Virus record (IMG/VR): IMGVR_UViG_3300031992_000075
Direction: 5' to 3' (one strand)
Length of the DNA stretch: 64,000 bases
Source of the DNA: an uncultured virus (IMG/VR IMGVR_UViG_3300031992_000075)
Lineage: Duplodnaviria; Heunggongvirae; Uroviricota; Caudoviricetes
Shown here: positions 20,904-50,200 of the stretch, piece by piece
Numbering within the stretch: position 1 is the stretch's first letter
How the letters are laid out: each line of letters opens with the position of its first letter
Program-made: the position numbers and the translations under genes
Notes under the pieces: model-generated
Database searches by the model: none
Told to the model about the DNA's origin: nothing
Seen by the model: only the letters and a program-made list of their open reading frames with translations

Positions 20904-21137
20904 TTAAATTGTTTCCATCCGTCTTTTTGTTTCCGCAATTACACGTTGTCCTTTTTCAGTTGGATGACCTTTCTTGTCACATTCGACAAATATTTTTAGC
21001 TTATCGTTTATCTTCACCCACCGATAACCGTGCTTTAAAAGTTTCTTTTCTTGCTTCTGCGCTTTTTCCAAGCCCTTACGGTCACTTTCCGTAACCGTAG
21101 GACTTGCACTTTGTGATACCCAGTTCGTTTCGTTCAT
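20904..21137 (-). CDS. hypothetical protein
   Basis: 77-aa ORF, ATGA-coupled. Confidence 0.65.
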   Translation of the reverse strand: MNETNWVSQSASPTVTESDRKGLEKAQKQEKKLLKHGYRWVKINDKLKIFVECDKKGHPTEKGQRVIAETKRRMETI

Positions 21138-22555
21138 AGTTTTGCCATTTCGCGGTTGAACTCGGCACTATCAATCGTGGTCTTGTCACCAATGATAAGT
21201 TGGTGTGCGAAAGGCAACGATTCAATCATTTCGCAAAACGCGCCCCAATCCTCACGAAGAAAATGGTGGCGACGCTGGAAATAGATGGTTTGCAATTGCT
21301 TGTAGTTGGTCGAAATACGCATGAACAACTCAATGCCAAGCGGACAATTGGAAAGCAAACGCATGTAATTGTCGTAGGACTGATGCTCGTTGTATTCGGC
21401 CAAAAGTTTCTTCATTTGTGCCTTGCTTTCGTCCGAAACGTACTCGTTGAAACAAGCATCCATATCCATTTTGGCCAAACGGTGCATCTTACTTGATGAT
21501 GTCACGATGTCGGCAAAGTGATAACGTTGAAATTCGGGCGTAAAGTAGTTCGGGTATTTCATATCGAAAGACACGCGAATACCTGTCAATGCGTTATCGT
21601 GACATTTTACATCGTTGCTATTTCTTGACGCATTAACAAGCCTTACAATACGATTAAAGTCCTTGATTGCCAAACTTAAATCATAATCTGGAATATCAAG
21701 AGTTGTTATCTGTGGCATTTCTATACCATATTCCTCAAACTTATCAATGTTAGGCGAAAATGCTCCAAATAAATCTTTTTCAGCTTTAAGACGTGCTATA
21801 ATTGCATCTTTCTTATCCTTATAATAACCCAAATGTCTTGATACCCCATCAACAACTATGTAAGCCCTCCATGAATTGATGTTTTTTCTAAAACTAACAC
21901 CAACAACATCATTAACCAATGATATTGAACGTTGCTTTCCTCTATTCATTATGTTTTGTGCAAAACTGGATGGTCTAAGGTTCTCTCTTGTGTTGTTTGA
22001 TTTGTCACGGTTTATATGGTCTAACGTATCACAATCAAGTCCAAGGTACTCTTTTAATAAAATGTGAAACAAAACGCCATCAACATTCAAATAGCCTACA
22101 CTTGTGACTTGTAAGTTCTTACCAAACACTAAAGGCAAATCAACTTGGCTTAAAAGTATTGTTCTCGTAATATTTTTTTCACCAGTAATATCAATGCGTA
22201 CATTTTTGTTGTCAATAAGTGTATATACAACATGGTCTTTTATTTCCCCATAACGATATATAGTGTGACAATGCTTACCACAATAATAGTGCATTTTACC
22301 ATCGCTGCATTTTAGACGTTGTACGTGTTCAGAACTGCCACATTTATAGCATGATTGTGGATTGTCTTGACCGCTATTCTTTCCTTGTGGATTGATGTGC
22401 GAAATAAAGTCAGGCAAAAAATCGCCAAAAGATACCCAATACCTCATGTTTTTAACTCTCTCGTCAATTTCATCTTGACTTGTCAACATTGCGTATGACG
22501 AAGCAATTATGCTTTCTGGCAAATCATACACAGAACAATTTGTTATTTCTACCAT
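21134..22555 (-). CDS. divergent ThyX-like protein with in-frame Zn-finger/HNH/AP2 endonuclease insertion
   Basis: Host parts: VYDLPESIIASSYAM (aa 9-23) and HDNALTGIRVSFD..FQRYHF....SSSKMH..TNYKQL.TIY.QRRHH.L.E.W..FC; insert aa ~26-296 has CxxC..C..H, DHINRDKSNN..ENLR and GV......WRAYI.......LG.Y.....A..AR..AE. Confidence 0.7.
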   Translation of the reverse strand: MVEITNCSVYDLPESIIASSYAMLTSQDEIDERVKNMRYWVSFGDFLPDFISHINPQGKNSGQDNPQSCYKCGSSEHVQRLKCSDGKMHYYCGKHCHTIYRYGEIKDHVVYTLIDNKNVRIDITGEKNITRTILLSQVDLPLVFGKNLQVTSVGYLNVDGVLFHILLKEYLGLDCDTLDHINRDKSNNTRENLRPSSFAQNIMNRGKQRSISLVNDVVGVSFRKNINSWRAYIVVDGVSRHLGYYKDKKDAIIARLKAEKDLFGAFSPNIDKFEEYGIEMPQITTLDIPDYDLSLAIKDFNRIVRLVNASRNSNDVKCHDNALTGIRVSFDMKYPNYFTPEFQRYHFADIVTSSSKMHRLAKMDMDACFNEYVSDESKAQMKKLLAEYNEHQSYDNYMRLLSNCPLGIELFMRISTNYKQLQTIYFQRRHHFLREDWGAFCEMIESLPFAHQLIIGDKTTIDSAEFNREMAKL

Positions 22556-22686
22556 TGTATTTCCGAAATTTAATGAGCCGAAAGATTAAAAGTGGGCAGG
22601 GCTTTCGGCATACCTTTTCAAACGAGGGTACTAAGTTCGTTCTATCCCACTTTGCAAAGGTACAAAATTATTTTCTTTTTTGCAAA
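22556..22686 (-). promoter_or_regulatory. promoter plus pseudoknot-like 5' leader
   Basis: TACCTTTG at 22662-22655; stem 22589-22596/22646-22653; 8-bp complement 22577-22584/22602-22609. Confidence 0.6.
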
Positions 22687-22743
22687 TATTTACCAATTTT
22701 TATTTGTTTGTTATTTTACCGTTTGATAATGTTACCATAGTTT

Positions 22744-23214
22744 TTATTTGCTAAAACGTTTACTGATATTTTCGTTCACAGCCTCCTTAATCTTGTCATC
22801 GAGGCGGTCGGTCATTTCCTCAATCTTGGCGATATAGTTCTGATAGGCTCGTTCAAGTTTCGTCTGATAGGCTGCTTTTACCTTCTCCTTGACTTCCTGA
22901 ACGCTGCGGTCTATTTCGTCCGCCCATGCCTTTCTCACGGCAGCTTCGACGCATTGGCGATATTTCTCTTTCAACTTGTAGTAGGATGACCATCCTTGTC
23001 GTGTCTCATCCATGTACTTCTTGTGGAGTTCCATCTGAGCTGTCTCGATAGCCGCTTTGACGGATGCGTCCATGTTCGTTACTACGTTCTTGGTGATTCT
23101 CTTTGAAACACCATCAATAATAGCATTGTGGATTTTGGCTCTTACCTCGTCCGACGAATTGATGATTTCTTCAATCAATTCTTTGTTTTGTAAAGAAATT
23201 GTAACTCTGTCCAT
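22744..23214 (-). CDS. helical/coiled-coil hypothetical protein
   Basis: 156-aa ORF. Confidence 0.75.
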   Translation of the reverse strand: MDRVTISLQNKELIEEIINSSDEVRAKIHNAIIDGVSKRITKNVVTNMDASVKAAIETAQMELHKKYMDETRQGWSSYYKLKEKYRQCVEAAVRKAWADEIDRSVQEVKEKVKAAYQTKLERAYQNYIAKIEEMTDRLDDKIKEAVNENISKRFSK

Positions 23215-23226
23215 AATGTTTTGAAT

Positions 23227-23973
23227 TTATTGTGTTATTTTACCTACCGTTTCATTGGCCTTAAAAGCCTTGAACGGCATTACCTCTGTTCTTTTTTCCA
23301 CCAAGTCACGGATGATAGACGCGGAATAGATGTTGTCTGGGTTTTCGTCGCTAAGACGTTTCGCAACCATCAATGCCGATGCCTTATCCATATCGGTGTT
23401 TACGCTTGTCTGTTTGCCCGTTTTAGGGTCATAGCAAAAGACACCCCAAGTTTCCTTTGGTTCGCCTACAAGTTCGTGATTTAGTTCCGCTTTATAGAAA
23501 GTGAAAACCTTGTCATCGGGTAGGTCGATTCTTATGCAACCCTCGCGTAATGACTTTGTTCTTTGTTCCTCGCCTAATTGCCAAGTTTCGGGCATTTGCA
23601 TCCATTCCATGATATGATGATAAAGGTTTTCGGTTTCAAAGCTAACCTCCTTCCCTGTTTTTCCGTTTGAATAGTAATCAGTCCAGAATTTCATAAACTT
23701 GTCAAATGCCCTTTCAAAGTTGTTCATTTCATGCGCTATGTCGTTTTTTCTTGCGTTTATTTCACTTACAAGATAATCAACACCACCATAGACACGATAA
23801 GCTGATGCAATTGTTGCATGTGACACGCACAATAAGTTTGCGATTCTTTGAAATAGTCCAAGTTCCCTTGCTTTTTCAATGTCAAGTCCGCGAACACCCG
23901 TTGTCTTGATTCTTTTTTGCACATCATCGGCAACGTTAACACTACCGACGATTTCTACGTTTTCACCTATCAT
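23227..23973 (-). CDS. hypothetical protein
   Basis: 248-aa ORF. Confidence 0.8.
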   Translation of the reverse strand: MIGENVEIVGSVNVADDVQKRIKTTGVRGLDIEKARELGLFQRIANLLCVSHATIASAYRVYGGVDYLVSEINARKNDIAHEMNNFERAFDKFMKFWTDYYSNGKTGKEVSFETENLYHHIMEWMQMPETWQLGEEQRTKSLREGCIRIDLPDDKVFTFYKAELNHELVGEPKETWGVFCYDPKTGKQTSVNTDMDKASALMVAKRLSDENPDNIYSASIIRDLVEKRTEVMPFKAFKANETVGKITQ

Positions 23974-24155
23974 TTTTTTGTATTATTATGTTTTGGTTTC
24001 CGATACTTTTGGTTGATTGTTGCAACCCATTTTTTGTACTTCTTTTTTTGTTCCTGCCTTATTCTGTAGTCAACGATGACCGTTTCCACATGGGCAAGGT
24101 CAGTGACCCACCTGCTATATGCAATATTCAGCATAGCTATTTGTTTTGTTTTTGT

Positions 24156-24725
24156 TTAAAATACTTTTTTTATTTCATTAGGTAAATCGCAATCCAACCA
24201 CCATTTAACATTAGGTATATTCCAACCACCTTTGTCATAGGTCTTAGGTGTATAGTGTTCTATTTTTCCCGTAGTAACACTTTTTCCATACCATCCATTA
24301 GGATTAGGTCTATGTGCTATAACTATTTTTAAAAGACTTGGAACATCTACATCTGTAGGAAATGTTTCTTGAAAGGCAACAACCTCTCTGTCTATCTCTG
24401 GTAGTTCATCACCATCGGCGGGTTTCCAAAGGTGATGAACTTTCCACTTAGCACCAGCCTTGAAAGCATTTTTCTTAATATAAGGAGAGCCAACTAATGC
24501 TGATTTACAATAATCTTCTGCTGCTTCTTCCAAATCTTTACTTATGGAAACCTCTTTCACTTCGAGGGTATCGAGGAAGTCGAGTGTTTCTTTGTATGCT
24601 TCTGCCTTGCCTTGATAGTAATCCTTGTTTTCTTTGGTTCTTAAATCCAAAACAACTTTCTTGCAAATATTCCCTCTTTTCTCTATCTTCGCTGCTAAAG
24701 CGGATTTTGGTATGTATTGTTCCAT
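24156..24725 (-). CDS. modular hypothetical protein
   Basis: 189 aa; FLDTLEVKEV, LEEAA, FKAGA.W modules. Confidence 0.75.
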   Translation of the reverse strand: MEQYIPKSALAAKIEKRGNICKKVVLDLRTKENKDYYQGKAEAYKETLDFLDTLEVKEVSISKDLEEAAEDYCKSALVGSPYIKKNAFKAGAKWKVHHLWKPADGDELPEIDREVVAFQETFPTDVDVPSLLKIVIAHRPNPNGWYGKSVTTGKIEHYTPKTYDKGGWNIPNVKWWLDCDLPNEIKKVF

Positions 24726-24728
24726 ATA

Positions 24729-25052
24729 TCATTCATTTTTATAGTGAACTGCCCATTCTTTAAGCCTTACTACTACTCCCGGGTGCTCTTCAAATTCCTC
24801 GTTCGGTTCAAACTTGAGGAAATCACCATGCAGGACAGCCTCACGTATTTTTTCGTCGCAACCGCTTTTAATAAACACGTCCCTATCCCAATACAAGCCG
24901 TAATGCGAATATTCAAAACGGCTGTTGCACATATCTGCTATCAGCGCATTCAGTTTATCCCTATCCTCTTCGTTCTTTATGGGAATAAGTGAATTTAACT
25001 GTTTGCACAACGCTTCCATTCTACTTAGATAAGCTTTTTCTTCTTGTGTCAT
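24729..25052 (-). CDS. hypothetical protein (MTQEE start family)
   Basis: start ATGACACAAGAAGA. Confidence 0.7.
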   Translation of the reverse strand: MTQEEKAYLSRMEALCKQLNSLIPIKNEEDRDKLNALIADMCNSRFEYSHYGLYWDRDVFIKSGCDEKIREAVLHGDFLKFEPNEEFEEHPGVVVRLKEWAVHYKNE

Positions 25053-25056
25053 AACT

Positions 25057-25407
25057 TTATTTTTTATAAGGGTTATGTTCTTCTGTAACTTCAATAGCAA
25101 GACCTATTTCAATAAGTCCACGATAATCAAAATGGTGAGCATTAAGCCAATCAAAAAGAGCTGTTTGTTGGTGAATAGTATAGCCTCTTGTCATAGTATC
25201 AAAAGTATGCCTCTCTTCCTCAGTCATATCTACCATTGACCTAAGATATGGTTTTACATCATCAATATTATAAGAAGCATTTACCCAACCAGTATCAACT
25301 CCCAATTCAAGTAAAATATCCTCTTCTCCATTTACATTAATTTTAACCTTATAGGGCAATCTTGCGCTCAAATCACGCAAAAGTAAATCTTTGTCTTCTT
25401 GTGTCAT
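25057..25407 (-). CDS. hypothetical protein (MTQE start family)
   Basis: MTQEDKDLLLRDLSARLPY..KPYLR.M..MTEEE..DWLNAHHFDYRGLI. Confidence 0.8.
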   Translation of the reverse strand: MTQEDKDLLLRDLSARLPYKVKINVNGEEDILLELGVDTGWVNASYNIDDVKPYLRSMVDMTEEERHTFDTMTRGYTIHQQTALFDWLNAHHFDYRGLIEIGLAIEVTEEHNPYKK

Positions 25408-25409
25408 AG

Positions 25410-25670
25410 TTATTCTCTTTTTGCCATTTTAAGAAAACTTTTTAAAACTAAATCAGCATTTATTTCTTCTGCTTCACTTCTATTTTCAATATAATGTTTA
25501 TCCAAAAAATCAGATAGCCAAATATATACTTTATCAATTTCAACTAAGTCTTTCCTTGGGTGTTTATCGGCCCATTCAGCACCTAAACGAAATTCAGTAT
25601 TACCTCTTTCTCCAACCCATTCATAAGATGCTTCACCAATTTCGTAGTATCTTTCTTCTTCTTGTGTCAT
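25410..25670 (-). CDS. hypothetical protein (MTQEE start family)
   Basis: GAEWADKHP module. Confidence 0.7.
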   Translation of the reverse strand: MTQEEERYYEIGEASYEWVGERGNTEFRLGAEWADKHPRKDLVEIDKVYIWLSDFLDKHYIENRSEAEEINADLVLKSFLKMAKRE

Positions 25671-25777
25671 AATACTCCTGCTTCTTCTAAAATATCTACT
25701 TCACTTGCATGTAATCTATACACCCTCATTTTTCTAAGAGTTTCTTGTCTTCTTTTTTCTCTCTCTTCTTGTGTCAT
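25667..25777 (-). CDS. 36-aa protein (MTQEE start family), not in ORF track
   Basis: MTQEEREKRRQETLRKMRVYRLHASEVDILEEAGVL*, ATGA overlap with next gene. Confidence 0.55.
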   Translation of the reverse strand: MTQEEREKRRQETLRKMRVYRLHASEVDILEEAGVL

Positions 25778-26362
25778 AACTTATTCTCCTTTTAAATTTC
25801 TTTCAAGTTCGATAAGATAAACATAAGAATCTGGCTTTGTTTTCTTGACATAGCACTCTGGATTTGGGTAAGAATAAAATCCTGCGCATTTCCTATAAAG
25901 CCTAGCACAACCTTTACAATAGCCTTCATCTCTTTTTTGCTTTCTTATTCATGTAATTTATTGTATATGTCAAAACTAAAAACAATTGGAAAATAAAGCA
26001 TTCCAAAGGTTAAAGCATATAAAACTATAAGAACTCTAATCCAAATGGAGTCTTCTTCATAAACTCCAAGAGCATTTACCATATATCCAAAAGCAGACAA
26101 CATATAGAATGCTAATACCAATATTTCAAACAGTGTCATAATTATAAAGGTTTTTATATTTGCCATCATATAGTCTTAATATATCTCCACATTCAGCAAC
26201 ATCACTTCCTCCATCTTCGTAATGATATTGGAAAAATGTATGCTCATTATGGTTAAGAGGATAATGGACGTTAATATCAACTATTTTATGTGGTCTTTTA
26301 TCACCGTCCATACGCATTACTATGTCACCTATCTTAAAACCCATAACTACAAAGTTGTGCTT

Positions 26363-27505
26363 TTAAGTGTATCTGTCTTTGAGGGACTTTAACCATTCAA
26401 CATATTCATCACGATTGTTGCCAATCCTGTCATTTGCTAACGCGTAAATTAGATTATTAAGTATTGTTTCATCCTCTTCACTTAGCTTTTGTTGTGGCTG
26501 TGGTTGTACTCTGTCTTTAAGGGATTTGAGCCAATTTATTCTATCCTTTTTTGCATCTTCGCTGATGTATTTGATATTCTCAATGTCCCTAATAATTGCT
26601 TTGAAAAAGGTATCATCCTCTTCACTCCAAACAGTCTTTTGTTTGCCTTTCTTAATCAAGACACTATCACCTTTTATTTCAGCATGGAAACCTTTAGGAA
26701 TGTTGTAGATAACCTCTTGAAGTTCACTATCTTTTGCACCAAATGGAATTTCTATTTCATTCTCAATCTTCTTCAATTCTTTCTTTCCAGCATCCCATTC
26801 ATAACCTGCTTCGTGCATCTTTGTAAAAAGTAGGTTACGCTGTTCTTTGGTGGATGGATATACCTGTTCATGATAAAGATTTGACCAATGTAATTCTTCA
26901 CCTTCACTATCAACGAACCTATCAAAGAATATATCTTTATGATTTGTATATCCACAATAGCAATAGATATGATTGTCCTTACATTCTTTAAATATAAATG
27001 GCATTTCTCCATTTTGATTTACAAGCACATCGCCATCTTTTGCATCTTGGATTGTCCAAAGATGATATTTCTCCTCATTGTCAAATGATATAGACTTTGA
27101 ATAATTATCCTTATTAACTACACTATAGCCGCAAGAACCAATACTTGTAACCTTAAATACAAAATTTGCCGTATTATGAGAAATCCAATCGCCAATCTTA
27201 AACTTTGGTTCAACCTTATCAGTAGGCTTCTGTTCACCTTGTTTTTCAAGCCAAGCAATCCAAACATTATAAGTTTCTGGTAGCTTTATTGGAGACATAT
27301 TACCAACTTTCCACTCTTGTAATTCACGCAAATGATGCAAGAGGCCTTTTCTTATCCTCTCATCCTCGCCCTCTTTGAGTTCTGGGAATATTTCATCTAT
27401 AGTATCACTTAATGGTGAAAATCTACAAGAAAACTTTAAGTCTTTTAATCTTTCAATTAACCCATCATAGGCTTTTGCTTTTTCTTCTATTGATAGTTCT
27501 TTCAT
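26363..27505 (-). CDS. modular hypothetical protein with repeated SEEDE/WLKSLKDR units
   Basis: 380 aa; EEKAKAYD, AWLEKQGEQKP, HLWTIQDAKDGDVL, two (W/L)SEED..WLKSLKDR repeats. Confidence 0.8.
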   Translation of the reverse strand: MKELSIEEKAKAYDGLIERLKDLKFSCRFSPLSDTIDEIFPELKEGEDERIRKGLLHHLRELQEWKVGNMSPIKLPETYNVWIAWLEKQGEQKPTDKVEPKFKIGDWISHNTANFVFKVTSIGSCGYSVVNKDNYSKSISFDNEEKYHLWTIQDAKDGDVLVNQNGEMPFIFKECKDNHIYCYCGYTNHKDIFFDRFVDSEGEELHWSNLYHEQVYPSTKEQRNLLFTKMHEAGYEWDAGKKELKKIENEIEIPFGAKDSELQEVIYNIPKGFHAEIKGDSVLIKKGKQKTVWSEEDDTFFKAIIRDIENIKYISEDAKKDRINWLKSLKDRVQPQPQQKLSEEDETILNNLIYALANDRIGNNRDEYVEWLKSLKDRYT

Positions 27506-28023
27506 GACTCTTCTTTATTTAGTAAATCTATTATTTCACTTGGGTTTTTACCACTTGCTTTTGCCACATACAAAGCGAATAAAACACCATATCCGTTTAA
27601 TACCTTCTTGTCTTTGTCCATAATCACAACATTTTAAGTTTATTGAGTTTAATCATGTTCGCTTTCCATCATCATTCACTTTGTCTGCATCCTGCACATA
27701 TCGTTTTTGCGAGGTACATTTTCGTATAACACCATCACTGGAATTTTTATCCCTTTTGGTGTACCTTTCACATGTATTTTTTACAGAACATTGTTCGCCT
27801 TTACAATAAATCATCATTCTGCTAAGTTTTTAAACACACCACCATTCTGCACAAAGTTAATCGTAGGCACTTCAAAGTAGTTTATTCGATTATGCACAAA
27901 AGGCTTTTTAATCGTGAACATATAACCAAACTTCTCGTCAACAAGCACAGTGTGCTTGGGGAATCTCAGTTCCCTTTCAAGCGCACTGTGTGAATGTAAA
28001 GTCAATAATCCGTGGCTCATACC

Positions 28024-28836
28024 TTACTTCTCCTCTTTGTTAAAATCAGCAAACGTTTCAGCGACTTTTTTTGCCTTTTCTTCATCCACCATAGTCGTAG
28101 AATGTGGATTGTCAACATAGTCAATATCATCAACCTCAATGGCATCAATATCCTCAACGCTTTCCATCTGTGCAAAATCACCTTTGACAACGCCTTGGTC
28201 GAACTTAATAGCACGCTGCATTTCTATTGATAGGATTCCATACTTTGACAACAAAAGCTTTAGCACGGTCTTTAAACACATTGCCTCTGGATTGTCTTTC
28301 CATACACCATTGTTGAATGACTTGCTATAACGCTTTCCATGTGCCATCGCCTCGTCATACGACATGTAGAAATATTTTTCATAGCCACCAATGGTGCGAA
28401 AGAAAGCCATAAAGCCAATAACCTTGTCACTTGTTCGCTTGCTTGCATCAAAGACATATTCATCTGTGAATGGGTCATATTTCACCAATTCTCCTTCATG
28501 TACCACGGCATTTGTAATCTTTGCATACTGGCCACTGCGGATAGCCAATTGGAGCAATCCTTTTGTCATAATCTGGAACTGAGCCATGCGGCCATAAGGA
28601 ACAATTGCCGCAAATCCTAGATTGGGATTAATAGGTAGGTCAAGTGATGCTGCAACCATTGCACTAGAATAAATTGTCGTAGGCTCTGCATTCTGCAATA
28701 GTCTGTTGTTATTGACTACTGAAAGAACACTGGTTACAAAGCCCTGTGCTTTTTGGCCAAGCATAGCCTGTAGATTCTTTTTTACTGCATCGTTGTCAAA
28801 ATACCCCTTTAGGGCTACCAAATTTGTATTTGCCAT
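28024..28836 (-). CDS. recT: RecT-family ssDNA annealing recombinase
   Basis: AASLDLPINPNLGFAAIVPY, QFQI..KGLLQLAIRSGQY, W......M..KTVLK.LL.KYGILS. Confidence 0.9.
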   Translation of the reverse strand: MANTNLVALKGYFDNDAVKKNLQAMLGQKAQGFVTSVLSVVNNNRLLQNAEPTTIYSSAMVAASLDLPINPNLGFAAIVPYGRMAQFQIMTKGLLQLAIRSGQYAKITNAVVHEGELVKYDPFTDEYVFDASKRTSDKVIGFMAFFRTIGGYEKYFYMSYDEAMAHGKRYSKSFNNGVWKDNPEAMCLKTVLKLLLSKYGILSIEMQRAIKFDQGVVKGDFAQMESVEDIDAIEVDDIDYVDNPHSTTMVDEEKAKKVAETFADFNKEEK

Positions 28837-28867
28837 AATCTTAAAAATTTGAATTTAAATATTAGTT

Positions 28868-29848
28868 TTATTTTTTCAGTCTAATCTGTACTGACCCTTT
28901 GCGTTTAACCACCTTATCAAAGTCACTAGTAAGCTTTTTACATGCCCGTGGGTGTTTCTTAGCATAGTCGGCTAAAAATTCCTTGTAATCAAAAGTATGG
29001 CTTTCTGTGGCATCCACACGGGTTATTGACCAGTTGTCGTTTTTTATACTTTTAATATTATGAATGTCCATAAAGGCAAACAGACGCGACTTAAATTCTT
29101 CAACCTTTTGCTCACGCTCTTTGATTTCGGCTAGCGCGTTTGTTATCACATCAAATTCCTGTTTTACAATGTCGGGCAGGTATTCGCTATCAATTTCATC
29201 ACCATCATAATACTCAGTGAAATCATCAAGAAAAGCGTCAACAATCGTCATTGCCTTGTTAACATCAAAGAAAGCTGATGCAAACTGAACACGCTTTATT
29301 GTCAGCCGCGACGGGTCAAAGTCAACACCTTGGGATAAATCCAAACCATCCGTAGAATAGTGTACCAAAAACAAACGGGCAGTCCATTCACTTCCGCGCT
29401 CAATGGCCTTTTCCTTGGCTATCACGTTGTGGATAAACAATTGCGCCTTGTACGTCTGTCTTGTCTGTTCGTAGTTGAACTTCGTTGTCTTTACCTCGTA
29501 CACATTGATTGCCTTGTGTTCCTCATCAACCAGTACAAGGTCTGGATGGGAAATCAGCTTGACGTTTTTCTTGGAGTATTTCTCGCTTACCCACAATGGA
29601 TTACTTTCATATCTATCATCCATTGCCTTTAGGTGATTAAACACCATCATCTCTACATCATCACCTGCCTTGATGGCATCAGTTCGTGGAATCTCCTCTT
29701 GTGGTATCAAACCCTTAACCACGGCCATGCGCTTGTAGGCCGACTTTGGAACACAATTGGCAACTGCCACTTGTAACAATACCCTACCATCACTTGAACC
29801 GAGGCAACCCAATCTTGTTGCCGCAATGTTTTCTTTGTAATTTTCCAT
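28868..29848 (-). CDS. YqaJ/lambda-exonuclease-like nuclease
   Basis: R...LGSSD, G...E, SHPD, YEVKTT, Y.AQL; adjacent to RecT. Confidence 0.8.
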   Translation of the reverse strand: MENYKENIAATRLGCLGSSDGRVLLQVAVANCVPKSAYKRMAVVKGLIPQEEIPRTDAIKAGDDVEMMVFNHLKAMDDRYESNPLWVSEKYSKKNVKLISHPDLVLVDEEHKAINVYEVKTTKFNYEQTRQTYKAQLFIHNVIAKEKAIERGSEWTARLFLVHYSTDGLDLSQGVDFDPSRLTIKRVQFASAFFDVNKAMTIVDAFLDDFTEYYDGDEIDSEYLPDIVKQEFDVITNALAEIKEREQKVEEFKSRLFAFMDIHNIKSIKNDNWSITRVDATESHTFDYKEFLADYAKKHPRACKKLTSDFDKVVKRKGSVQIRLKK

Positions 29849-29852
29849 TTGA

Positions 29853-30176
29853 TTATAATTTTACTTTGTCTTGTAAATCCTCAAACCATATATCCTTGCC
29901 ACATGCCATAGCCACACATAACTCCGTATGACAACCAGCACTACGATTAAAATCGTGCAAGAACAGAACCGTGTCACAATCCAACAACGCCCGTAGGTCA
30001 TGTTCCATGTATTCGTATGTGGTTAGACCTTCAACCCACTGGCTACCCAATGGGTTAAACACATCATAACCACGGCCACGCAACTTAACTTCCATCTGCA
30101 TTGCCGTGTCATGCCTTTCGTTTATGTCGTAACCACTAATCGGTAGCGACATGTAGATTTTCCTCTTTTTCTCCAT
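29853..30176 (-). CDS. DUF4406-like (deoxyribosyltransferase-like fold) protein
   Basis: KIYMSLPISG, VFNP, YM..DL..LLDCD, S.GC..E. Confidence 0.75.
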   Translation of the reverse strand: MEKKRKIYMSLPISGYDINERHDTAMQMEVKLRGRGYDVFNPLGSQWVEGLTTYEYMEHDLRALLDCDTVLFLHDFNRSAGCHTELCVAMACGKDIWFEDLQDKVKL

Positions 30177-30525
30177 TTATGCTTTTCTTTGTTTTAATAA
30201 TGGTTATATCCCTGCAAACAACATTGTTCGTCATAAATGTGTTGCCCTTATATTCATTCTTGAATGATGATAATCGACCAAAAACAGATGCACGATTGCC
30301 ACGACAAGCATTGACGCGTTGCAGGTATTCCAGTTGTTTCTTGTCATAACAGAATATGCGTATGTATGTCTGTGAATGTGTCCTTTCTGTGGCATCCGAG
30401 AACTCCTTTGTGTAGGCATTGATGCAAAGGGAAAAGGTTGCAAAATCCTTTCCCTCTTTCGTTCTCCCATATTTGAAGTCATCACCGACGACTCCCTCTA
30501 ATAACACTATGTTTTTGTCCTGCAT
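30136..30525 (-). CDS. ssb: single-stranded DNA-binding protein
   Basis: N.V.L.G.VG.D, ATFSL, RG....V.GRL; promoter TACCTTTG at 30553-30546. Confidence 0.75.
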   Translation of the reverse strand: MQDKNIVLLEGVVGDDFKYGRTKEGKDFATFSLCINAYTKEFSDATERTHSQTYIRIFCYDKKQLEYLQRVNACRGNRASVFGRLSSFKNEYKGNTFMTNNVVCRDITIIKTKKSINGEKEENLHVATD

Positions 30526-30986
30526 ATATCAATTGTAATTTGGTACAAAGGTACTTGTAATATTCCAAATCTGCAAATATTTTAATTTTGTTTAAGTTAA
30601 AGAATATTAACGTCAATTTTTGGGTAAATGAGTTAGTTTGTACCATGCAATTGCCATAGCATGAAAGTGTGCCACAACAAGCCATTTGTTAGTTACGTAC
30701 TTTTCGGGGTGTGCGCTTGTTCGTTCCACGTGTTCCATGACCTTTGCACGTGACATCTTGTATTCAAACTTAGTGCCGTCCTCGGCCACGAAACGCGCCT
30801 CATAACATTCATCATTCGCGCAATAAAATTCCATTTCTTTTATGCCATACTTGGTCATAAAGATAGTTTTTTTCGTCATACTTCTTCTCTTTTCTGTATA
30901 AAATATCCAATTACATAACCTACGGCAATACCCACTATTGCACTCAATCCGCATAATATCATAACAGCAGTATGTGTAACCATAAC

Positions 30987-31265
30987 TTATTCTCCTTTCT
31001 GTACTTTAAGCCCAAGTTCAAAGAAGTGTTTGGCAACACGTCTTAAACTTAGTTTGTGACCTATTGTTGCTTTTTCAAAATTATCGTCTATAAACTGAGA
31101 TATTTCCTTATTTATATCCACCTCTTTAACTTCAAGGGTGTCGAGGAATTTCTGAACAGCATACAATCCGTCACAGACTCCTTGGTCGTGTCTTAAATTA
31201 AGATTTAGCAATTCTCTTAATCTCTCTATCTCCGCTACTAAAGCGTCTTTGTCTATCAGTTTCAT
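30987..31265 (-). CDS. modular hypothetical protein
   Basis: IDKDALVAEIERL, FLDTLEVKEV, AKHFFELGLK..KGE*. Confidence 0.7.
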   Translation of the reverse strand: MKLIDKDALVAEIERLRELLNLNLRHDQGVCDGLYAVQKFLDTLEVKEVDINKEISQFIDDNFEKATIGHKLSLRRVAKHFFELGLKVQKGE

Positions 31266-31267
31266 AA

Positions 31268-32177
31268 CTATTGATGTTTACATAATTCTAAATAAAATTC
31301 TTTAGCGGCTTGATAAATAGTGTCGCCAAAACCACAGATACCTTCTTGAATATTATCACCGTAAAGAAAGCACCATTGATTGCCATCTTTATACGGCTTG
31401 ATACCTAAAGCCGTGATTGCTGACCACATTTCAATATCATTTAACCGTGGTTCTATTTCGTTATTCCAAAGTCTGTAAAAAGTGTCAAAATCCATAATCA
31501 TTATCCTTTCATTGCGTTTTTAAAGTCCTCAATAACTTTCTTATGTGCTATATGTGCTTCATTTGTAGGCTTCCCAGTCGTGGTATCATATTCAACATGG
31601 ATATAATCATCCATATTTGATATAATCCACTCACAAGCCTCTTTAATAAATGCATCTGTACGGATGTACTCAATAGTGTTATTTCTTTTGGGTTGATAAC
31701 TTGCAGCCATACACTCAAGTGGTGTCAGATAAATCTTCTCTGGTGCTTCGTTTGCTTTCATAATACAATAGTTTTATCAATTTCACATAGCCTTAAAGCG
31801 TGCTGAATTTGGTGTATATAATGAACATCCATTCTAACCATATCTTTTCCACCTACTCTCAATAAAAGATAAAATGAACCATCTTGATATGACCATAAAG
31901 CATACAGTTCGTTTGCTACAGCCTTTGATACGTCTTGACAGGCATATACGGTTTCAAGATGGTTTTCTGGAATATATGGCTTAAACTCATTCTTTTCAAG
32001 AATTTCGGGAGTAAGAGGGATAGGTTCTACATTCTTGATATTACACCAATGCGAGCCATTCTTAGAGTCGACATACACAATTCCGTCATTAAAGCCAGTT
32101 ACGCGTACAACAATTTTACTGCCATCAAAGCAGTTAAAATAGACGTAAGTACCAAGTATTATTTCGTTTGCTTTCAT
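31268..32177 (-). CDS. three small coupled hypothetical genes (31268-31501, 31501-31761, 31758-32177)
   Basis: Overlapping stop/start; two begin MKANE. Confidence 0.65.
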
Positions 32178-32212
32178 AACTTATTTATTCTTTAATTTAA
32201 TTACCAACTCTT

Positions 32213-32562
32213 TTATAACACTTTAAACATTGTGTATTCGTCTTTTCCGATAACAGTTATATCAAAACCAAGTGTTTGATACCAAGCAACAAGCCAATCT
32301 TTCATCTTATCTACTTGTATCTCAGCATAAGACCTTGCATGTTTTCTTGCAACCGCAAAGGCGTTTTGCATAAGTTCGCGGCCAATGCCTTGCTTGCGGT
32401 TCAATTCAAACACGGAAAGGTTGCAAAGGAAAGCGGTAGAGGGGTAGTCATCGTCAAGTTTCACGCAGATAATTCCGATACCCTTTTTGTGAACTATGTC
32501 AATGGACGTACCACAAACCACGTATTTGTGTGGCAAAGATAGTTGTTGTGTGTGGTAGTCAT
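32213..32562 (-). pseudogene. GNAT acetyltransferase with a 1-nt frameshift near 32515
   Basis: ATG 32562 (ATGA-coupled to upstream 57-aa ORF) gives MTTTHNNYLCHTNTWF; -1 frame continues GTSIDIV..RKQGIGRELM..WYQTLGF; paralog at 11278 reads INTWFWGRSIDIV. Confidence 0.65.
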
Positions 32563-32728
32563 AACTTATAGCAAAGATAGTTGAGCATTGCCGCAATCAT
32601 CCAAAACGATGCACGGTCAACATCGCCAGTAAAATACCGCCACATTGAAACAATAACACACACAAACACACAAAATGCCTGTAAATCCCTACCTTTAACG
32701 ATGGGTACGTAAAATCTAATTTTCTTTT

Positions 32729-33362
32729 TCATAATTCTTGTTGTTTTACTGATTTATCATACATTTCCTTTAATTGCTCGATAACCTTATACCTGTCTTT
32801 ATTTGGTATTTCGTAAAGATTAAGCCTAATCATAAGAGTGTTCAAAACTGGGTCGTTCAATTCAGTTGCACGTTCAGCAACTTGCGCAAGTAAGTTGCTA
32901 AACACATTCCAACACACAGCATACATACCTTTTTCGCTGTTTTCGCATGCTTCTTTTAAGAACTGAGGTGTATTCACATCAAAAGACAATTTGTCACCCA
33001 TGTTAAACACATCAAGTTTTGTTGGTATAACTTTTGTTTCCATAGCCTTATTGTCTGTTTAATTTATTTTCGTATTCTTTGCGCTTAAAATTCCAATCTG
33101 GTAGCCACTCTGAAAGATTTGCAACGTCTTGTGTGTTATATATGATTGCAAGCACCCACCATTCTGCACCCCTTTCGTTGTTCGCTTGCTTGATTGCCAT
33201 TATATATCCACGATTAGCTTCTTTTGAAAAGCAAATTTCGTAGCCATTATCAATGATTCGCTTGCATAGCCCACTTGCCAATAATTCTTCTTTACTATTT
33301 ACTTCGTAGTAAACATCATCAAAACCACTAAAGAAGTTTGGTCTGTATTTCTTTATTTTCAT
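32729..33362 (-). CDS. two hypothetical genes (32729-33043, 33048-33362)
   Basis: ORF track; coupled on minus strand. Confidence 0.65.
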
Positions 33363-33443
33363 AATCCTAATATATTTTAATTGGTTTAAGTTTTTCGATT
33401 CCAAATTTTGTTTGCTTTTAGTCTTCTAAACTCTTCCATAAAC

Positions 33444-34019
33444 TTATTTTTTTATTATTAATCGTTTATATTCGTCGCGTTCCACAAGACCAAGTTTCTT
33501 CAACCTTTGCAAGTAGTCGCGTATGTTTTTCTCTCCTATATATCCGTACATTTCGGAAAGTCTTTTTCTTGTAGAAAAGATAAATTTATCATTTCCGCGA
33601 AGGTTTTTTAACCAAGAATAAAATATTAGCAATTCGTTTTTCAATCCACTTTTATTATCTAATGTAAAAAAACCGTTCACATATATATCACAATGTTTAA
33701 TCGTGTTGTTATCATAAACGATTCCCATGTCATGTAATTTATTTATTGCTCTTGATACAGATGGTTGACTAACGCCTGTTTGTTTGGATATTTTATTGCC
33801 ATAACAAAAAATTCCTTCAAAATCAAACATATAGTTTGGTAACGGAAATGTGTCACCATATTCTTCTAACGCATATTTATCGTAAGTTCCAGTTTCTTTA
33901 TCCCACACGTCATCCAAATCGCAAATAGAACAATAAACCAAGAAAGAAAAAACAATCCTTTCCGTCGCATTTAAACATTGTCGGTCGGCAATAAGCCTCT
34001 TGTAATAAACGTTTTTCAT
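33444..34019 (-). CDS. tandem winged-helix protein, candidate replication initiator
   Basis: ISKQTGVSQPSVSRAINKLHDMGIV and RKRLSEMYG.....IRDYLQRLKKLGLVE; iteron array 200 bp upstream. Confidence 0.65.
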   Translation of the reverse strand: MKNVYYKRLIADRQCLNATERIVFSFLVYCSICDLDDVWDKETGTYDKYALEEYGDTFPLPNYMFDFEGIFCYGNKISKQTGVSQPSVSRAINKLHDMGIVYDNNTIKHCDIYVNGFFTLDNKSGLKNELLIFYSWLKNLRGNDKFIFSTRKRLSEMYGYIGEKNIRDYLQRLKKLGLVERDEYKRLIIKK

Positions 34020-34176
34020 TTTCGTACCTGTTTAAAAATCCTTGCACCCATTTAAAAGTGGAAAAAGGGAAAACCATAACAGGTGCGATAAAAAGGTCTT
34101 GTCGGTAGGGTAGCTACTCCCAGCCTATCCCTTTCTTTCCACTTGCAAAGATACATATTATTTTGAAACAAACAAA
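34020..34176 (-). promoter_or_regulatory. promoter plus pseudoknot-like 5' leader
   Basis: TATCTTTG at 34153-34146; long stem 34056-34070/34128-34144; 10/11 complement 34022-34032/34078-34088 next to the ATG. Confidence 0.6.
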
Positions 34177-34217
34177 AGTAAACAAGCAAATTAACAAAAA
34201 TTAAACCAAATAACCCT

Positions 34218-34318
34218 TATTCATTTGCTTACTATACATATTCATTTGCTTACGGTCTTATTCATTTACTTACCCCAATGTTATTCATTTACTTACGCTA
34301 TCTTATTCGTTTGCTTAC
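34218..34318. repeat. five 15-bp direct repeats (iteron-like)
   Basis: TATTCRTTTRCTTAC at 34218, 34239, 34259, 34282, 34304; periods 21, 20, 23, 22 bp; AT-rich tract follows. Confidence 0.9.
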
Positions 34319-36948: not shown

Positions 36949-37770
36949 TTATTTTTTTAGGTTCATCAAACTTGTTCTAACATTCTGTATGTTTGCGCAC
37001 AATCTTGCACGCAAATTTGTCGCGTCAAGGTCGGACAAATCCCACTTTGCGAACAGCGTTCCAGTGTCATCCATCTCTTTGTAGTCACGCATAAGTGACA
37101 AAAGACGTATCTTGTAATCCCCTTTTGTTGTAACTGTGTTCCAATCCCACAATGATGCGTCATCACTTGTGCAAGCCTGTGGGAATACATTCTTAACAAT
37201 CTTCAGGAATACCTGCACGTCCTTGCTCGCAAGGTGTCGTGCATTCTTCATTCGCCCTCTTTCCATTGATTCTTTTTCTTTCTGTTCCTTTGTTTTGTTG
37301 TTATACGTTTCAATCCATTTTTCCGATGCACCTCCAGTTTTTTCACCGCGAGCCTTTTTGGCTGCAAGTGCCTGTTTTGTACGAATACTCGTAATCAATG
37401 CCTCACGTTCTGCCAATGCCCAAAACAATGTCAAGGTAAAGCGGTCACTATGAGGCAAATCACAAAATTCAATATTACCTTCTCCCATTTCGTCAAGTAT
37501 GCTCAATGCTTCTTGACAATTACGAAAGCGGTCTGACTTCGCAATAACAAGTATTGCCCCAGTTTCTTTTGCGTATTTCATCGCCTTTCGTAATTCCTTA
37601 CATCCACTTAATTCTTTACCTGTGTAGCATTCGGAATAGTCTGCGATTAATTCACCTCCGTCACGTTCAACAAAGTAACGGATAATCTCTTTCTGAGCCT
37701 CCAATCCCAAACCAGATTGTGATTGGCGAAATGTACTAACACGACGCCAACTAACATATTTCTTTGCCAT
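36949..37770 (-). CDS. serine recombinase (resolvase/invertase family)
   Basis: RVST..Q..SGLGLEAQ, E..TG, L..A, LVIAKSDRF-R, LAEREA..TS.RTKQALAAKKARG. Confidence 0.9.
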   Translation of the reverse strand: MAKKYVSWRRVSTFRQSQSGLGLEAQKEIIRYFVERDGGELIADYSECYTGKELSGCKELRKAMKYAKETGAILVIAKSDRFRNCQEALSILDEMGEGNIEFCDLPHSDRFTLTLFWALAEREALITSIRTKQALAAKKARGEKTGGASEKWIETYNNKTKEQKEKESMERGRMKNARHLASKDVQVFLKIVKNVFPQACTSDDASLWDWNTVTTKGDYKIRLLSLMRDYKEMDDTGTLFAKWDLSDLDATNLRARLCANIQNVRTSLMNLKK

Positions 37771-48596: not shown

Positions 48597-48782
48597 TTTG
48601 CATATTCCAAATAAATTGCTTATCTTTGCACAAAGAATTTAATCGTTGATGCGTTGTCGGTCATTTAGGCGCATTAAGCGAAAAGATATAAGTAATTACT
48701 ATTTTTGCCTACGGGCGACATGAAAGTGTAGTGACCGACACAAGTAATGTCGCTCGTCGGTTTTTAAAAAAGGTCACAAATT
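48597..48782 (+). promoter_or_regulatory. promoter plus kissing-loop leader
   Basis: TTTG-20-TATCTTTG; two hairpins whose loops carry TGTCGGTCA (48655-48663) and TGACCGACA (48732-48740). Confidence 0.65.
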
Positions 48783-49331
48783 ATGGAAAAAGAGTATTTA
48801 GCGGCACTTGCCAGCCCACAATGGCAAAAGAAACGTCTTGAAATCATGCAAAGAGACGACTTTACTTGCCAATTTTGCGGATGTAAGGATAGGACGTTGC
48901 ATATTCATCACAAAGTGTACGAAAAAGGAAAGAAACCTTGGGAATACGAAGACAAGGATTTGATTACTTTGTGCAATAGGTGTCACGAATACATAACCGA
49001 TGAAAAAAACAATCTTTACGAAAATTTTACAAATGCAAGAGATTGTTTTAGAAAGTTTGGTTTTAGTGATTCGATTTTTAATGCAATTTTGTGCGGCTTT
49101 TGTTCTTTTTTTGAAAGCATAAAAGAACAAGAAAAACATTGGAGTTTTGATATAACAAAGCAAGAAATCCATAACGCTGTTATGAGCACCCAAAATTACG
49201 ACGATGTTAAAACCCTTGTTAAATTGGGGATTAAAGAAAAGGAATTGGTGAATTTCAATTATCCTATTTTTCTTGAAGACTATGATAATGCTAAAATAGA
49301 TGAAAACGTATCTTTACTTCTTAATGATTGA
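48783..49331 (+). CDS. HNH endonuclease
   Basis: WQKKRLEI..RD.FTCQ.CG, L.IHH..Y, L.TLC..CH. Confidence 0.85.
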   Translation: MEKEYLAALASPQWQKKRLEIMQRDDFTCQFCGCKDRTLHIHHKVYEKGKKPWEYEDKDLITLCNRCHEYITDEKNNLYENFTNARDCFRKFGFSDSIFNAILCGFCSFFESIKEQEKHWSFDITKQEIHNAVMSTQNYDDVKTLVKLGIKEKELVNFNYPIFLEDYDNAKIDENVSLLLND

Positions 49332-49339
49332 TTACTAAT

Positions 49340-50200
49340 ATGGAAAGAAACGATTATATAACCATCCAAGCCTACATGGTAACGGAACTTGGATTGAGCG
49401 GAAACAATTTAATTATCTATGCCCTTATACATGGTTTTTGTAAAGATGGAATACATGAATTTAAGGGTAGTATAAATTATATTTGTGAATGGACTAACCT
49501 AACACGAAACACCGTGATAGCCATTCTAAAGCAATTGGTTGAAAGTGAATTACTCGTTAAGAGAACATACAAGGAAAATAATGTTACTTTTTGCGCCTAT
49601 TCATTGGGTAGTGAAAAAATTACACCACCAGTACAAAATGTGGATGAGGGTAGTGAAAAAAATGCACCCAATAATAATATAGATAATACTAAATGGAAAA
49701 AAGATAAAGAAGAATCTTTATCTAAAAGTGTCAGCGATGTTGAACTTTTTGAGAAATGTTGGATTACATATAGAAGAAAAGGAAAAAAAGGAAAATCATT
49801 GCCGTATTGGAAAAAACTAACCGAAAGTGAAAAGCAAATGGTACTTCCACATATCAAGGCTTATGTAACAAGTCGTGAATTACAATTTCAACAGGATTTT
49901 GAACGATACCTACGCGATAAAACATTTACCACAATCGTATTTTCGAAAAACAAGGTTATATATGACCCTACAAGGTTAGACAAGAAAGACAAAGCCAATG
50001 AGGTATATATGCCGCTAACGGACGGTGCATTATCATGGAGCGACAATCTAAATTGTTATGTTTACGTTGGAATGTATTATGGTCATGTTTTTGATGGATA
50101 TACGGATGATAATCGTCCCAATGATGCGAAAGTCATGCTTGGCAACGGTGGTGGTTTTATCGTATGGAATGCGGCAACAAAGAAATGGGAAAGAAAATAA
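49340..50200 (+). CDS. phage replication initiator (N-terminal HTH, replisome organizer-like)
   Basis: L.G..L.IYALI.GF, GS..Y..EW.NLTR.TV...LK.L....L..K; FE..W..Y..K; internal DNA repeats 49606-49668. Confidence 0.75.
   Translation: MERNDYITIQAYMVTELGLSGNNLIIYALIHGFCKDGIHEFKGSINYICEWTNLTRNTVIAILKQLVESELLVKRTYKENNVTFCAYSLGSEKITPPVQNVDEGSEKNAPNNNIDNTKWKKDKEESLSKSVSDVELFEKCWITYRRKGKKGKSLPYWKKLTESEKQMVLPHIKAYVTSRELQFQQDFERYLRDKTFTTIVFSKNKVIYDPTRLDKKDKANEVYMPLTDGALSWSDNLNCYVYVGMYYGHVFDGYTDDNRPNDAKVMLGNGGGFIVWNAATKKWERK

Follow-up and report, generated by a model that had tools for sequence, protein, structure and literature searches.

A predicted three-way-junction leader RNA with a gene-specific guide loop before nuclease and replication-initiator genes of tailed phages

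Described leader RNAs and the present family

The c4 RNA of phages P1 and P7 and the CI RNA of P4 (C4 family, RF01695) are regulators encoded in the leader of the operon that they control, on the same strand. They fold into a three-way junction in which one hairpin loop is antisense, have two downstream sites around the start of the first gene, are tied to antirepressor or replication genes and owe their specificity to a covarying guide and target. In the record of phage P1, c4 is annotated in the c4-icd-ant leader, the sites a2 and b2 directly precede icd, and c4 is noted as repressing icd ant translation. The present text concerns two leaders in a 64,000-nt stretch of DNA (the window) from an uncultured tailed virus (IMG/VR IMGVR_UViG_3300031992_000075), which lie with their genes on the minus strand, leader 1 in front of an HNH endonuclease-like gene and leader 2 in front of a winged-helix, replication-initiator-like gene. 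Comparative analysis identifies both as versions of a single structured 5' leader RNA, a three-way junction of helices P1, P2 and P3 in the order P1-UAG-P2-GAnAAG-P3-P1', in which the P3 loop carries a variable guide complementary to sites before the start codon of its own gene. The characters listed for C4 recur in this putative regulator, including the two sites around the start of the first gene.

By proposed mechanism, phage P1 c4 and P4 CI are the nearest case, without detectable homology. The C4 model scores 68.8 bits on phage P1 and 74.9 bits on P4 and finds nothing in the window, and model R2 of the present family (see below) matches neither P1 nor P4 (best E 2.3). c4 has two different segments (a' and b') for two different sites, whereas the present family has one loop for two like sites. 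Within its transcript c4 lies some 120 nt from the 5' end and is excised from the longer leader, by RNase P according to the title of Hartmann (1995), which PMC11143913 cites, whereas the present RNA is predicted to start at the 5' end.

The family is best called a distant, long-P2, sub-threshold branch of int-alpA (RF02996, typed 'Gene; sRNA'). The int-alpA consensus has the same order of elements, namely P1, UAG, a short P2, GAAAAG, P3 with a CCU-containing loop, CU, P1', a U-rich tail and AgGG, and the layout P1-UAG-P2-GAAAAG-P3-P1' followed by a U-rich stretch is found in both window copies (R2 alignments). Proteobacteria-type members, which align with RF02996 element by element, score 35.7, 34.9, 34.8, 26.8, and 25.6 bits against a gathering threshold of 35.8, whereas the window copies have no match at gathering or at E ≤ 10 and none of 11 Bacteroidota-type loci has one at E ≤ 0.1. 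Intermediates link the two: model R1, from the Bacteroidota-type loci L149 and L197, matches the window copies as well as the Proteobacteria-type loci L126, L129, and L135 (20–36 bits), and these three attain 34.8–35.7 bits with RF02996. P2 of the present family is 10–15 nt longer and has a palindromic loop. The context of int-alpA is, as we take it, that of Proteobacteria prophages near integrase and alpA genes; this setting is not found here, the window being a tailed phage with Bacteroidota-type promoters and with HNH-like and rep-like genes. A full-text search by name returned no described function for int-alpA (the main text of Weinberg, 2017, is without the motif name, and its supplement lay outside the search), and searches of the literature on int-alpA, on homing endonuclease with kissing loop and on DUF1376 with RNA motif returned no description of the mechanism proposed here.

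Rfam, run over the whole window at gathering thresholds and over both leaders at E ≤ 10, gave no family for the leaders, and matches to snoRNA, U1, and patAB in the latter run were at chance level. A likeness to guanidine-III or preQ1 riboswitches had no Rfam support and was dropped, and no result supports a self-cleaving ribozyme, self-cleavage having been listed as a check in an earlier sequence-only reading of the window.

HIV-1 DIS, the kissing-loop dimerisation site of the retroviral genome, has a 6-nt palindrome in an 8–9 nt hairpin loop behind purines, with compensatory substitutions between lineages. A self-complementary loop hexamer kept by compensatory change is found in the present family as well, perfect in leader 2 and imperfect in leader 1, but dimerisation of a retroviral genome is a different biology and the phage leader dimer is a predicted one. 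In phage T4, according to the part of PMC2988022 that treats them, homing-endonuclease genes (I-TevI-III, segB, mobE) are restrained by RNA structure over the ribosome binding site. Post-transcriptional restraint over the translation start of free-standing or intron-borne endonuclease genes would thus be shared, whereas the T4-type hairpins, as far as that part of the paper describes them, are simple, local and relieved by late promoters inside, without conserved scaffold, guide module, two-site layout or family-wide fold.

Fold, guide and palindromic loop

The sequence-only reading had proposed one RNA motif family with a constant scaffold, and every string that it named was found again at its minus-strand position. 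GGATAG-N5-25-TACCCT occurs twice in the window against 0.00 expected, a count attained in 0 of 100 shuffles. The layout of the family is P1, J1/2 (A)UAG, a P2 hairpin, J2/3 GAnAAG, a P3 hairpin with variable loop, 0–2 nt, and P1'. Covariance model R1, trained on two other viral contigs only (L149 and L197), gave 103 matches over the 308 kb searched; at E ≤ 1 its matches in the window were just 34064-34134 (34.1 bits, E 1.5e-6) and 22590-22652 (18.9 bits, E 0.032). They lie on the gene-sense strand only, the palindromic P2 piece excepted. Model R2, built from 44 non-identical matches that include both window copies and run on the window without filters, found the same two places only (47.0 and 31.2 bits), the next best having E 1.8.

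Standard pairs fill 94.4% of the pair cells of the 44-row alignment, against 75.7% after shuffling, in an alignment that was fitted to the model and is biased toward structure. Two-sided changes occur at 14 of 16 base pairs, and the covariation score is 0.402 against 0.115 in shuffled alignments (attained in 0 of 500), falling to 0.021–0.050 when partners are slid by 1–3 columns. Given the controls with slid partners and the variety of compensatory pairs, little doubt is left about the predicted fold, and since G-U pairs occur in the helices, the structure belongs to the gene-sense strand. The proposal of a single motif family is supported by these counts and by the recovery of both copies with covariance models. 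MAFFT alignments A1, A3, and A4 had a one-column slip between subclasses and were left out of the pair counts; script-based helix finding made many false P1 assignments, and covariance models were used instead.

The match between guide and target was measured as the longest perfect Watson-Crick stretch between P3 and the leader from motif end to start codon, with own and with swapped P3 segments. The sample of 27 members, with P3 at least 4 edits apart, was drawn from 96 full-length matches with 42 distinct P3 segments. Means were 6.19 nt (own) against 1.41 (swapped) for the best site and 3.81 against 0.27 for the second-best non-overlapping site, each attained in 0 of 10,000 permutations. For the 15 members with a Bacteroidota-type promoter the corresponding values were 7.20 against 1.49 and 5.00 against 0.35 nt, and 11 of the 15 own pairs, against 9 of the 210 swapped ones, had two sites, of at least 6 and at least 5 nt. 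The variable antisense segment of each leader was thus correctly held to match its own target, and this complementarity, whose loss among homologues had been named as refuting evidence, is kept across the sample.

All 27 motifs lie 14–47 nt upstream of a same-strand, ATG-started open reading frame (ORF). In 11 of the 15 Bacteroidota-type members the end of site 1 is 14–24 nt ahead of the ATG (9, 11, 19, and 22 nt in the others), the site adjoining the ATG, where present, ends 1–7 nt before it, and the starts of paired sites are 12–20 nt apart. Loop and site have changed jointly between orthologues, leader 2 having CACCUGUU with AACAGGU and the relative at L122 CACCCGUU with AAUGGGUG (proteins 42% identical). 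Proteobacteria-type members have a CCUCC-like loop and GGAGG-like sites at the Shine-Dalgarno position; their guide reads as an anti-Shine-Dalgarno sequence, which points to occluded ribosome binding. RNAduplex runs across whole leaders gave long interrupted duplexes without specificity and were not used.

In leader 2 an upstream ORF of 11 codons (34016-34051, minus strand; ATG 34051, TGA 34018-34016) runs across the two target sites, and its stop overlaps the start codon of rep in the sequence ATGA. ATG triplets also stand inside the target sites of L122 and L120, and the guide may act on the upstream ORF or on alternative starts.

Palindromes are a second variable feature. Counted where the search pattern left the loop sequence free, in a sample biased by the preference of R2 for UAGCUA-like loops, 12 distinct P2 loop types comprise eight with perfect 6-nt palindromes (UAGCUA, UCAUGA, UGGCCA, UAAUUA, UCGCGA, UUGCAA, UGUACA, AGUACU) and four that are one substitution off (UAGCCA; AGUACC, in leader 1 and L120; UCAUGU; GAGCUA), while the chance of a 6-nt palindrome in a random 8–10 nt stretch of the window is 3–5%. 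Leader 2 has the perfect UAGCUA. The central two letters are neighbors, which are unable to pair inside one hairpin yet covary, so that pairing between two molecules is the natural reading. To our knowledge, c4 has no palindromic loop. Different palindromes stand side by side in complete relatives of the phage: UCAUGA, UUGCAA, and UGGCCA in G002; UAGCUA, UAAUUA, and UGUACA in G003; UAGCUA, UAAUUA, and UCAUGU in G004; UAGCUA, UAAUUA, GAGCUA, and AGUACU in G005. The loops suggest kissing-loop dimers through P2, which would be able to clamp both sites. Past P1, the first 8 nt are 59% T against 37% across the remaining leader; a simple terminator scan (loop limit 8 nt) did not flag P1.

Table 1. 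Positions in the window of the two leader RNAs, their parts, target sites and neighboring features
Feature	Position	Strand	Basis or remark
Leader-1 RNA, three-way junction	22589..22653	-	R1 18.9 bits; R2 31.2 bits, E 4.3e-7 (copy within R2 training set); sequence
Leader-1 P1	22653-22646 with 22596-22589	-	AAAGTGGG at 22653-22646, CCCACTTT at 22596-22589
Leader-1 GGATAG	22647-22642	-	sequence
Leader-1 J1/2 AUAG	22645-22642	-	sequence
Leader-1 P2	22641-22637 with 22625-22621	-	TAGTACCCT at 22633-22625
Leader-1 P2 loop ACUUAGUACCC	22636-22626	-	sequence
Leader-1 J2/3 UGAAAAG	22620-22614	-	GAAAAG at 22619-22614
Leader-1 P3	22615-22598	-	contains guide GCCGAAAG at 22609-22602
Leader-1 target site 1, CUUUCGGC (DNA CTTTCGGC)	22577..22584	-	8/8 complementary to guide; end 21 nt before ATG
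Leader-1 target site 2, UUUCGG	22563..22568	-	6/6 complementary to guide; end 7 nt before ATG
HNH endonuclease-like gene behind leader 1, 473 aa, ATG at 22555	21134..22555	-	phrog_99 HNH endonuclease, E 2.2e-28
Bacteroidota-type promoter-like site, leader 1 (TTTG ... TACCTTTG)	22655..22686	-	pattern match and sequence; TACCTTTG at 22662-22655
Leader-2 RNA, three-way junction	34056..34144	-	R1 34.1 bits, E 1.5e-6; R2 47.0 bits (copy within R2 training set); sequence
Leader-2 long P1	34144-34128 with 34070-34056	-	AAGTGG 34144-34139, CCACTT 34061-34056
Leader-2 GGATAG	34130-34125	-	sequence
Leader-2 J1/2 UAG	34127-34125	-	sequence
Leader-2 P2	34124-34104	-	TAGCTACCCT at 34116-34107
Leader-2 P2 loop AGUAGCUA	34118-34111	-	palindrome UAGCUA at 34116-34111
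Leader-2 J2/3 GACAAG	34103-34098	-	sequence
Leader-2 P3	34099-34071	-	contains guide UCGCACCUGUU (DNA TCGCACCTGTT) at 34088-34078
Leader-2 target site 1, GGGUGC	34044..34049	-	5 Watson-Crick pairs and one G-U with GCACCU of the guide
Leader-2 target site 2, AACAGGUACGA (DNA AACAGGTACGA)	34022..34032	-	7 contiguous pairs, C-A mismatch, 3 pairs; end 2 nt before ATG
Winged-helix, replication-initiator-like gene behind leader 2, 191 aa, ATG at 34019	33444..34019	-	Pfam HTH_36 E 2.7e-8; PHROG replication initiation families E 1e-8 to 2e-7
Bacteroidota-type promoter-like site, leader 2 (TTTG ... TATCTTTG)	34146..34176	-	pattern match and sequence; TATCTTTG at 34153-34146
Iteron-like repeats, five copies of GTAAGYAAAYGAATAA, about 21 nt spacing, directly upstream of leader-2 promoter	34217..34318	.	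read from sequence; context, outside RNA

Relatives, downstream genes and phage context

Homologues of the 191-aa protein (15, aligned) led to four viral loci, all four with a like leader directly behind a TAnnTTTG/A box; a locus search with the single rep-like protein found no relative, while the aligned query succeeded. The pattern GGGAGTAGCTACCC-N1-6-GAHAAG, from leader 2 and L123, found 111 viral loci, some with Bacteroidota-type promoters and NUMOD4/HNH genes, most with sigma-70-type promoters and DUF1376 genes. In one-genome-per-species contigs it matched just 7 loci; the long-P2 form belongs mainly to uncultivated phages. A wide-pattern scan of IMG/VR gave 119 loci, of which one, on reading, has a leader (L112, the same place as L120, before another initiator-like gene) and the remainder are chance matches in coding sequence; two narrow patterns gave 1 and 0 loci. 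Among GenBank phages, blastn with both leaders returned one 47-nt, chance-like match in a Microviridae gene, neither the rep-like protein (tblastn) nor two related leaders (blastn) had a match, and no cultured phage with the element was found.

Four complete relatives of 80–88 kb (G002–G005) have 3, 3, 3, and 4 copies, every one with a different guide (loci L122, L326–L337, L349); nine other records have one copy and one 142-kb phage has two. The 64-kb window, with two copies, is part of a contig of about 78 kb, so that a third copy of the leader could lie outside it. In a more distant member, at L312:303-355, the -10 box is of TATAAT type, P2 is shortened to GG/CC around the loop AUUCGCGA (palindrome UCGCGA), J2/3 reads CGAAAG, and the guide AUGCCUU matches AAGGCA before the ATG. 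This member scores just 11.6 bits with R2, so that the family is wider than models R1 and R2 reach.

The genes behind the 27 members comprise 11 nuclease-like ones (five NUMOD4+HNH_3, the HNH gene of the window, one HNH-winged helix fusion, three DUF723/DUF4379/CapR zinc-finger, one weak NUMOD1), 12 replication-initiator-like ones (eight DUF1376 and four HTH_36 or related winged-helix proteins) and four without family. DUF1376 proteins are taken here to be replication-related and DUF723 proteins endonuclease-related. The window's HNH gene scores 18.8 bits with Pfam HNH_3, under the 24.8 cut-off. Whole records revealed additional copies, two of them before further NUMOD4+HNH_3 genes, four before genes without family and one each before a DUF4379/DUF723, a GIY-YIG, a Bro-N/KilAC antirepressor and an AntA antirepressor gene; those of G002–G005 stand before rep-like, NUMOD4/HNH, DUF723/DUF4379, Bro-N/KilAC, and AntA genes. 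Of the suggestion that the leaders control potentially toxic DNA-acting genes, the association with such genes thus stands (11 and 12 of 27), and control itself would follow from the mechanism proposed below.

The window has a tailed-phage gene set, with RecT, a RecE-like exonuclease, sliding clamp, RusA, primase-helicase, a small serine recombinase, and tape measure. The promoter pattern TTTG-N17-21-TAnnTTTG, whose TAnnTTTG is presumably the Bacteroidota -7 box, has 13 matches in the window against 4.06 expected. The RNA motif follows only two of the 13, those of leaders 1 and 2, which argues that the likeness of the leaders is not merely that of a promoter. In leader 1 the motif starts 2 nt past the promoter-like site. 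Leader 2 heads a leftward block of early-looking genes and adjoins the iteron array; mid-way in the same block, leader 1 with its own promoter precedes the HNH gene, a placement that we assume to be typical of free-standing homing endonuclease genes.

Homologous leaders at L122 (TGTTAGAAATTTAATAG, five copies) and L123 (ATTTACTACA repeats) have their own repeat arrays, and the iteron arrays are probably replication origins or initiator binding sites. A second HNH gene (48783-49328, plus strand) and a second replication-initiator-like gene (49340-50197, plus strand) stand behind the promoter match at 48597-48628, where the leader motif is absent. A serine recombinase or DNA invertase-like gene (36952-37770, minus strand; 273 aa, phrog_125) is too short to encode a large serine integrase. 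In sheep-gut metatranscriptomes two runs contain parts of the phage: contigs of run X3 are identical to 22239-22642 and 22614-22968, that is, leader 1 and the 5' part of the HNH gene, which attests presence in an RNA library only, and the leader-2 region has almost no cover.

Proposed mode of action and alternatives

The RNA is proposed to start at or next to the transcription start, to fold into the three-way junction and to present the gene-specific guide in the P3 loop. The guide would find its partners on the same mRNA species, in two short direct repeats of which the first lies some 20 nt ahead of the start codon and the second abuts it; pairing would cover the ribosome landing region and repress translation initiation of the nuclease, initiator or antirepressor gene. 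That the guide loop covers this region and thereby lowers translation of genes harmful in excess seems to us fairly probable. One loop holds only one site, so that full occupation would need a second RNA molecule, and one probably takes part. It would be either free leader RNA, acting in trans and ending at the U-rich stretch past P1, or another transcript; recruited through the self-complementary P2 loop, it would give dose-dependent shut-off. The logic would be that of phage P1 c4 and P4 CI, a regulator in the leader of its own transcript, on the same strand and with two target sites. A more specific version, in which the two identical guide loops of a P2-joined leader dimer hold both tandem sites as a clamp, making the leader a concentration-sensing, addressable RNA repressor, is put forward tentatively and is possible rather than probable.

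Several observations count against this reading. Beside the bias of the fitted alignment, single-sequence folding energies do not set either leader apart from shuffled sequences (z -0.35 in both cases), so that the structure rests on comparison, and the minimum-energy fold of isolated leader 1 is without P2. By the strict Watson-Crick count, 3 of the 15 Bacteroidota-type members are without a second site of at least 5 nt (in L120 it is lost solely because the first in-frame ATG shortens the region) and 2 of the 27 members have no site of at least 5 nt. L120 has a 10-nt match within an 11-nt loop, where pairing is impossible unless P3 opens. The palindrome of leader 1 is imperfect, with a GUAC core or a 3+1+3 ACUUAGU only, and both copies of the 142-kb phage (G014) have UAGCUA, so that copies are not always distinct. 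Clear copies of the leader stand at 9 of 75 loci of NUMOD4-HNH relatives, and weak ones at 2, which implies that these genes do not need the leader. The RNA evidence consists of assembled metatranscriptome contigs, which show neither ends, strand nor level.

The junction with P2 could instead be an aptamer whose ligand is a small molecule or a conserved protein, with P3-loop pairing as the expression platform, in the manner of a riboswitch or a protein-operated switch. An antisense scaffold alone leaves unexplained why J1/2 UAG and J2/3 GAnAAG are kept across the Proteobacteria-type and Bacteroidota-type members, and the RNA is located where riboswitches are. No Rfam riboswitch family matches, however; the P2 loop and stem vary freely save for self-complementarity, the downstream nucleases, initiators, and antirepressors follow no common metabolite logic, and the target sites lie outside P1, the helix that usually does the switching. 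We regard an aptamer as improbable.

An equally small chance is given to a leader that raises expression. Paired 5' ends stabilise bacterial mRNAs, and P1 starts within a few nt of the predicted transcription start in all Bacteroidota-type members, so that the paired end might shield the transcript from 5'-end-dependent decay while loop-site pairing prevents a worse structure or serves as a ribosome standby platform. Pairing at site 2, which abuts the start codon, or at the Shine-Dalgarno-like sites of Proteobacteria-type members should nevertheless block initiation, and phages usually hold such gene classes down, as far as the relevant part of PMC2988022 reports. It is very improbable that palindromic hexamer and direct repeats are operator or origin sites for proteins, with the RNA fold as a by-product: palindromes and direct repeats are typical protein sites and iterons lie just upstream of leader 2, but pairing is kept through G-U and compensatory changes on one strand only, the models match on the gene-sense strand apart from the palindromic P2 piece, and palindromes and guides differ between copies in one genome, which a single DNA-binding protein leaves unexplained.

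Repression of translation by the guide loop would assign a function to an orphan Rfam motif, int-alpA. The c4/CI principle of a leader-encoded regulator whose address can be rewritten, so far one of a few coliphages, would extend to phages of Bacteroidota and other phyla. Such repression would also show that phages restrain selfish nuclease genes, replication initiators, and antirepressors without a protein. If the clamp is true, translation would be open at few transcripts and shut on their accumulation, which amounts to pulse or copy-number control without any protein. A few substitutions would then suffice to rewrite guide, sites, and palindrome, making the promoter-leader cassette portable, with private addresses. 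The cassette would move with genes for homing endonucleases, initiators, and antirepressors between phages from different bacterial phyla, and several mutually insulated copies of it could function per genome. Guide, the two sites, and palindromic loop, which covary as three modules, would also lend themselves as a model for translational repressors that are small, orthogonal and programmable, tools that are scarce in Bacteroides and other gut bacteria.

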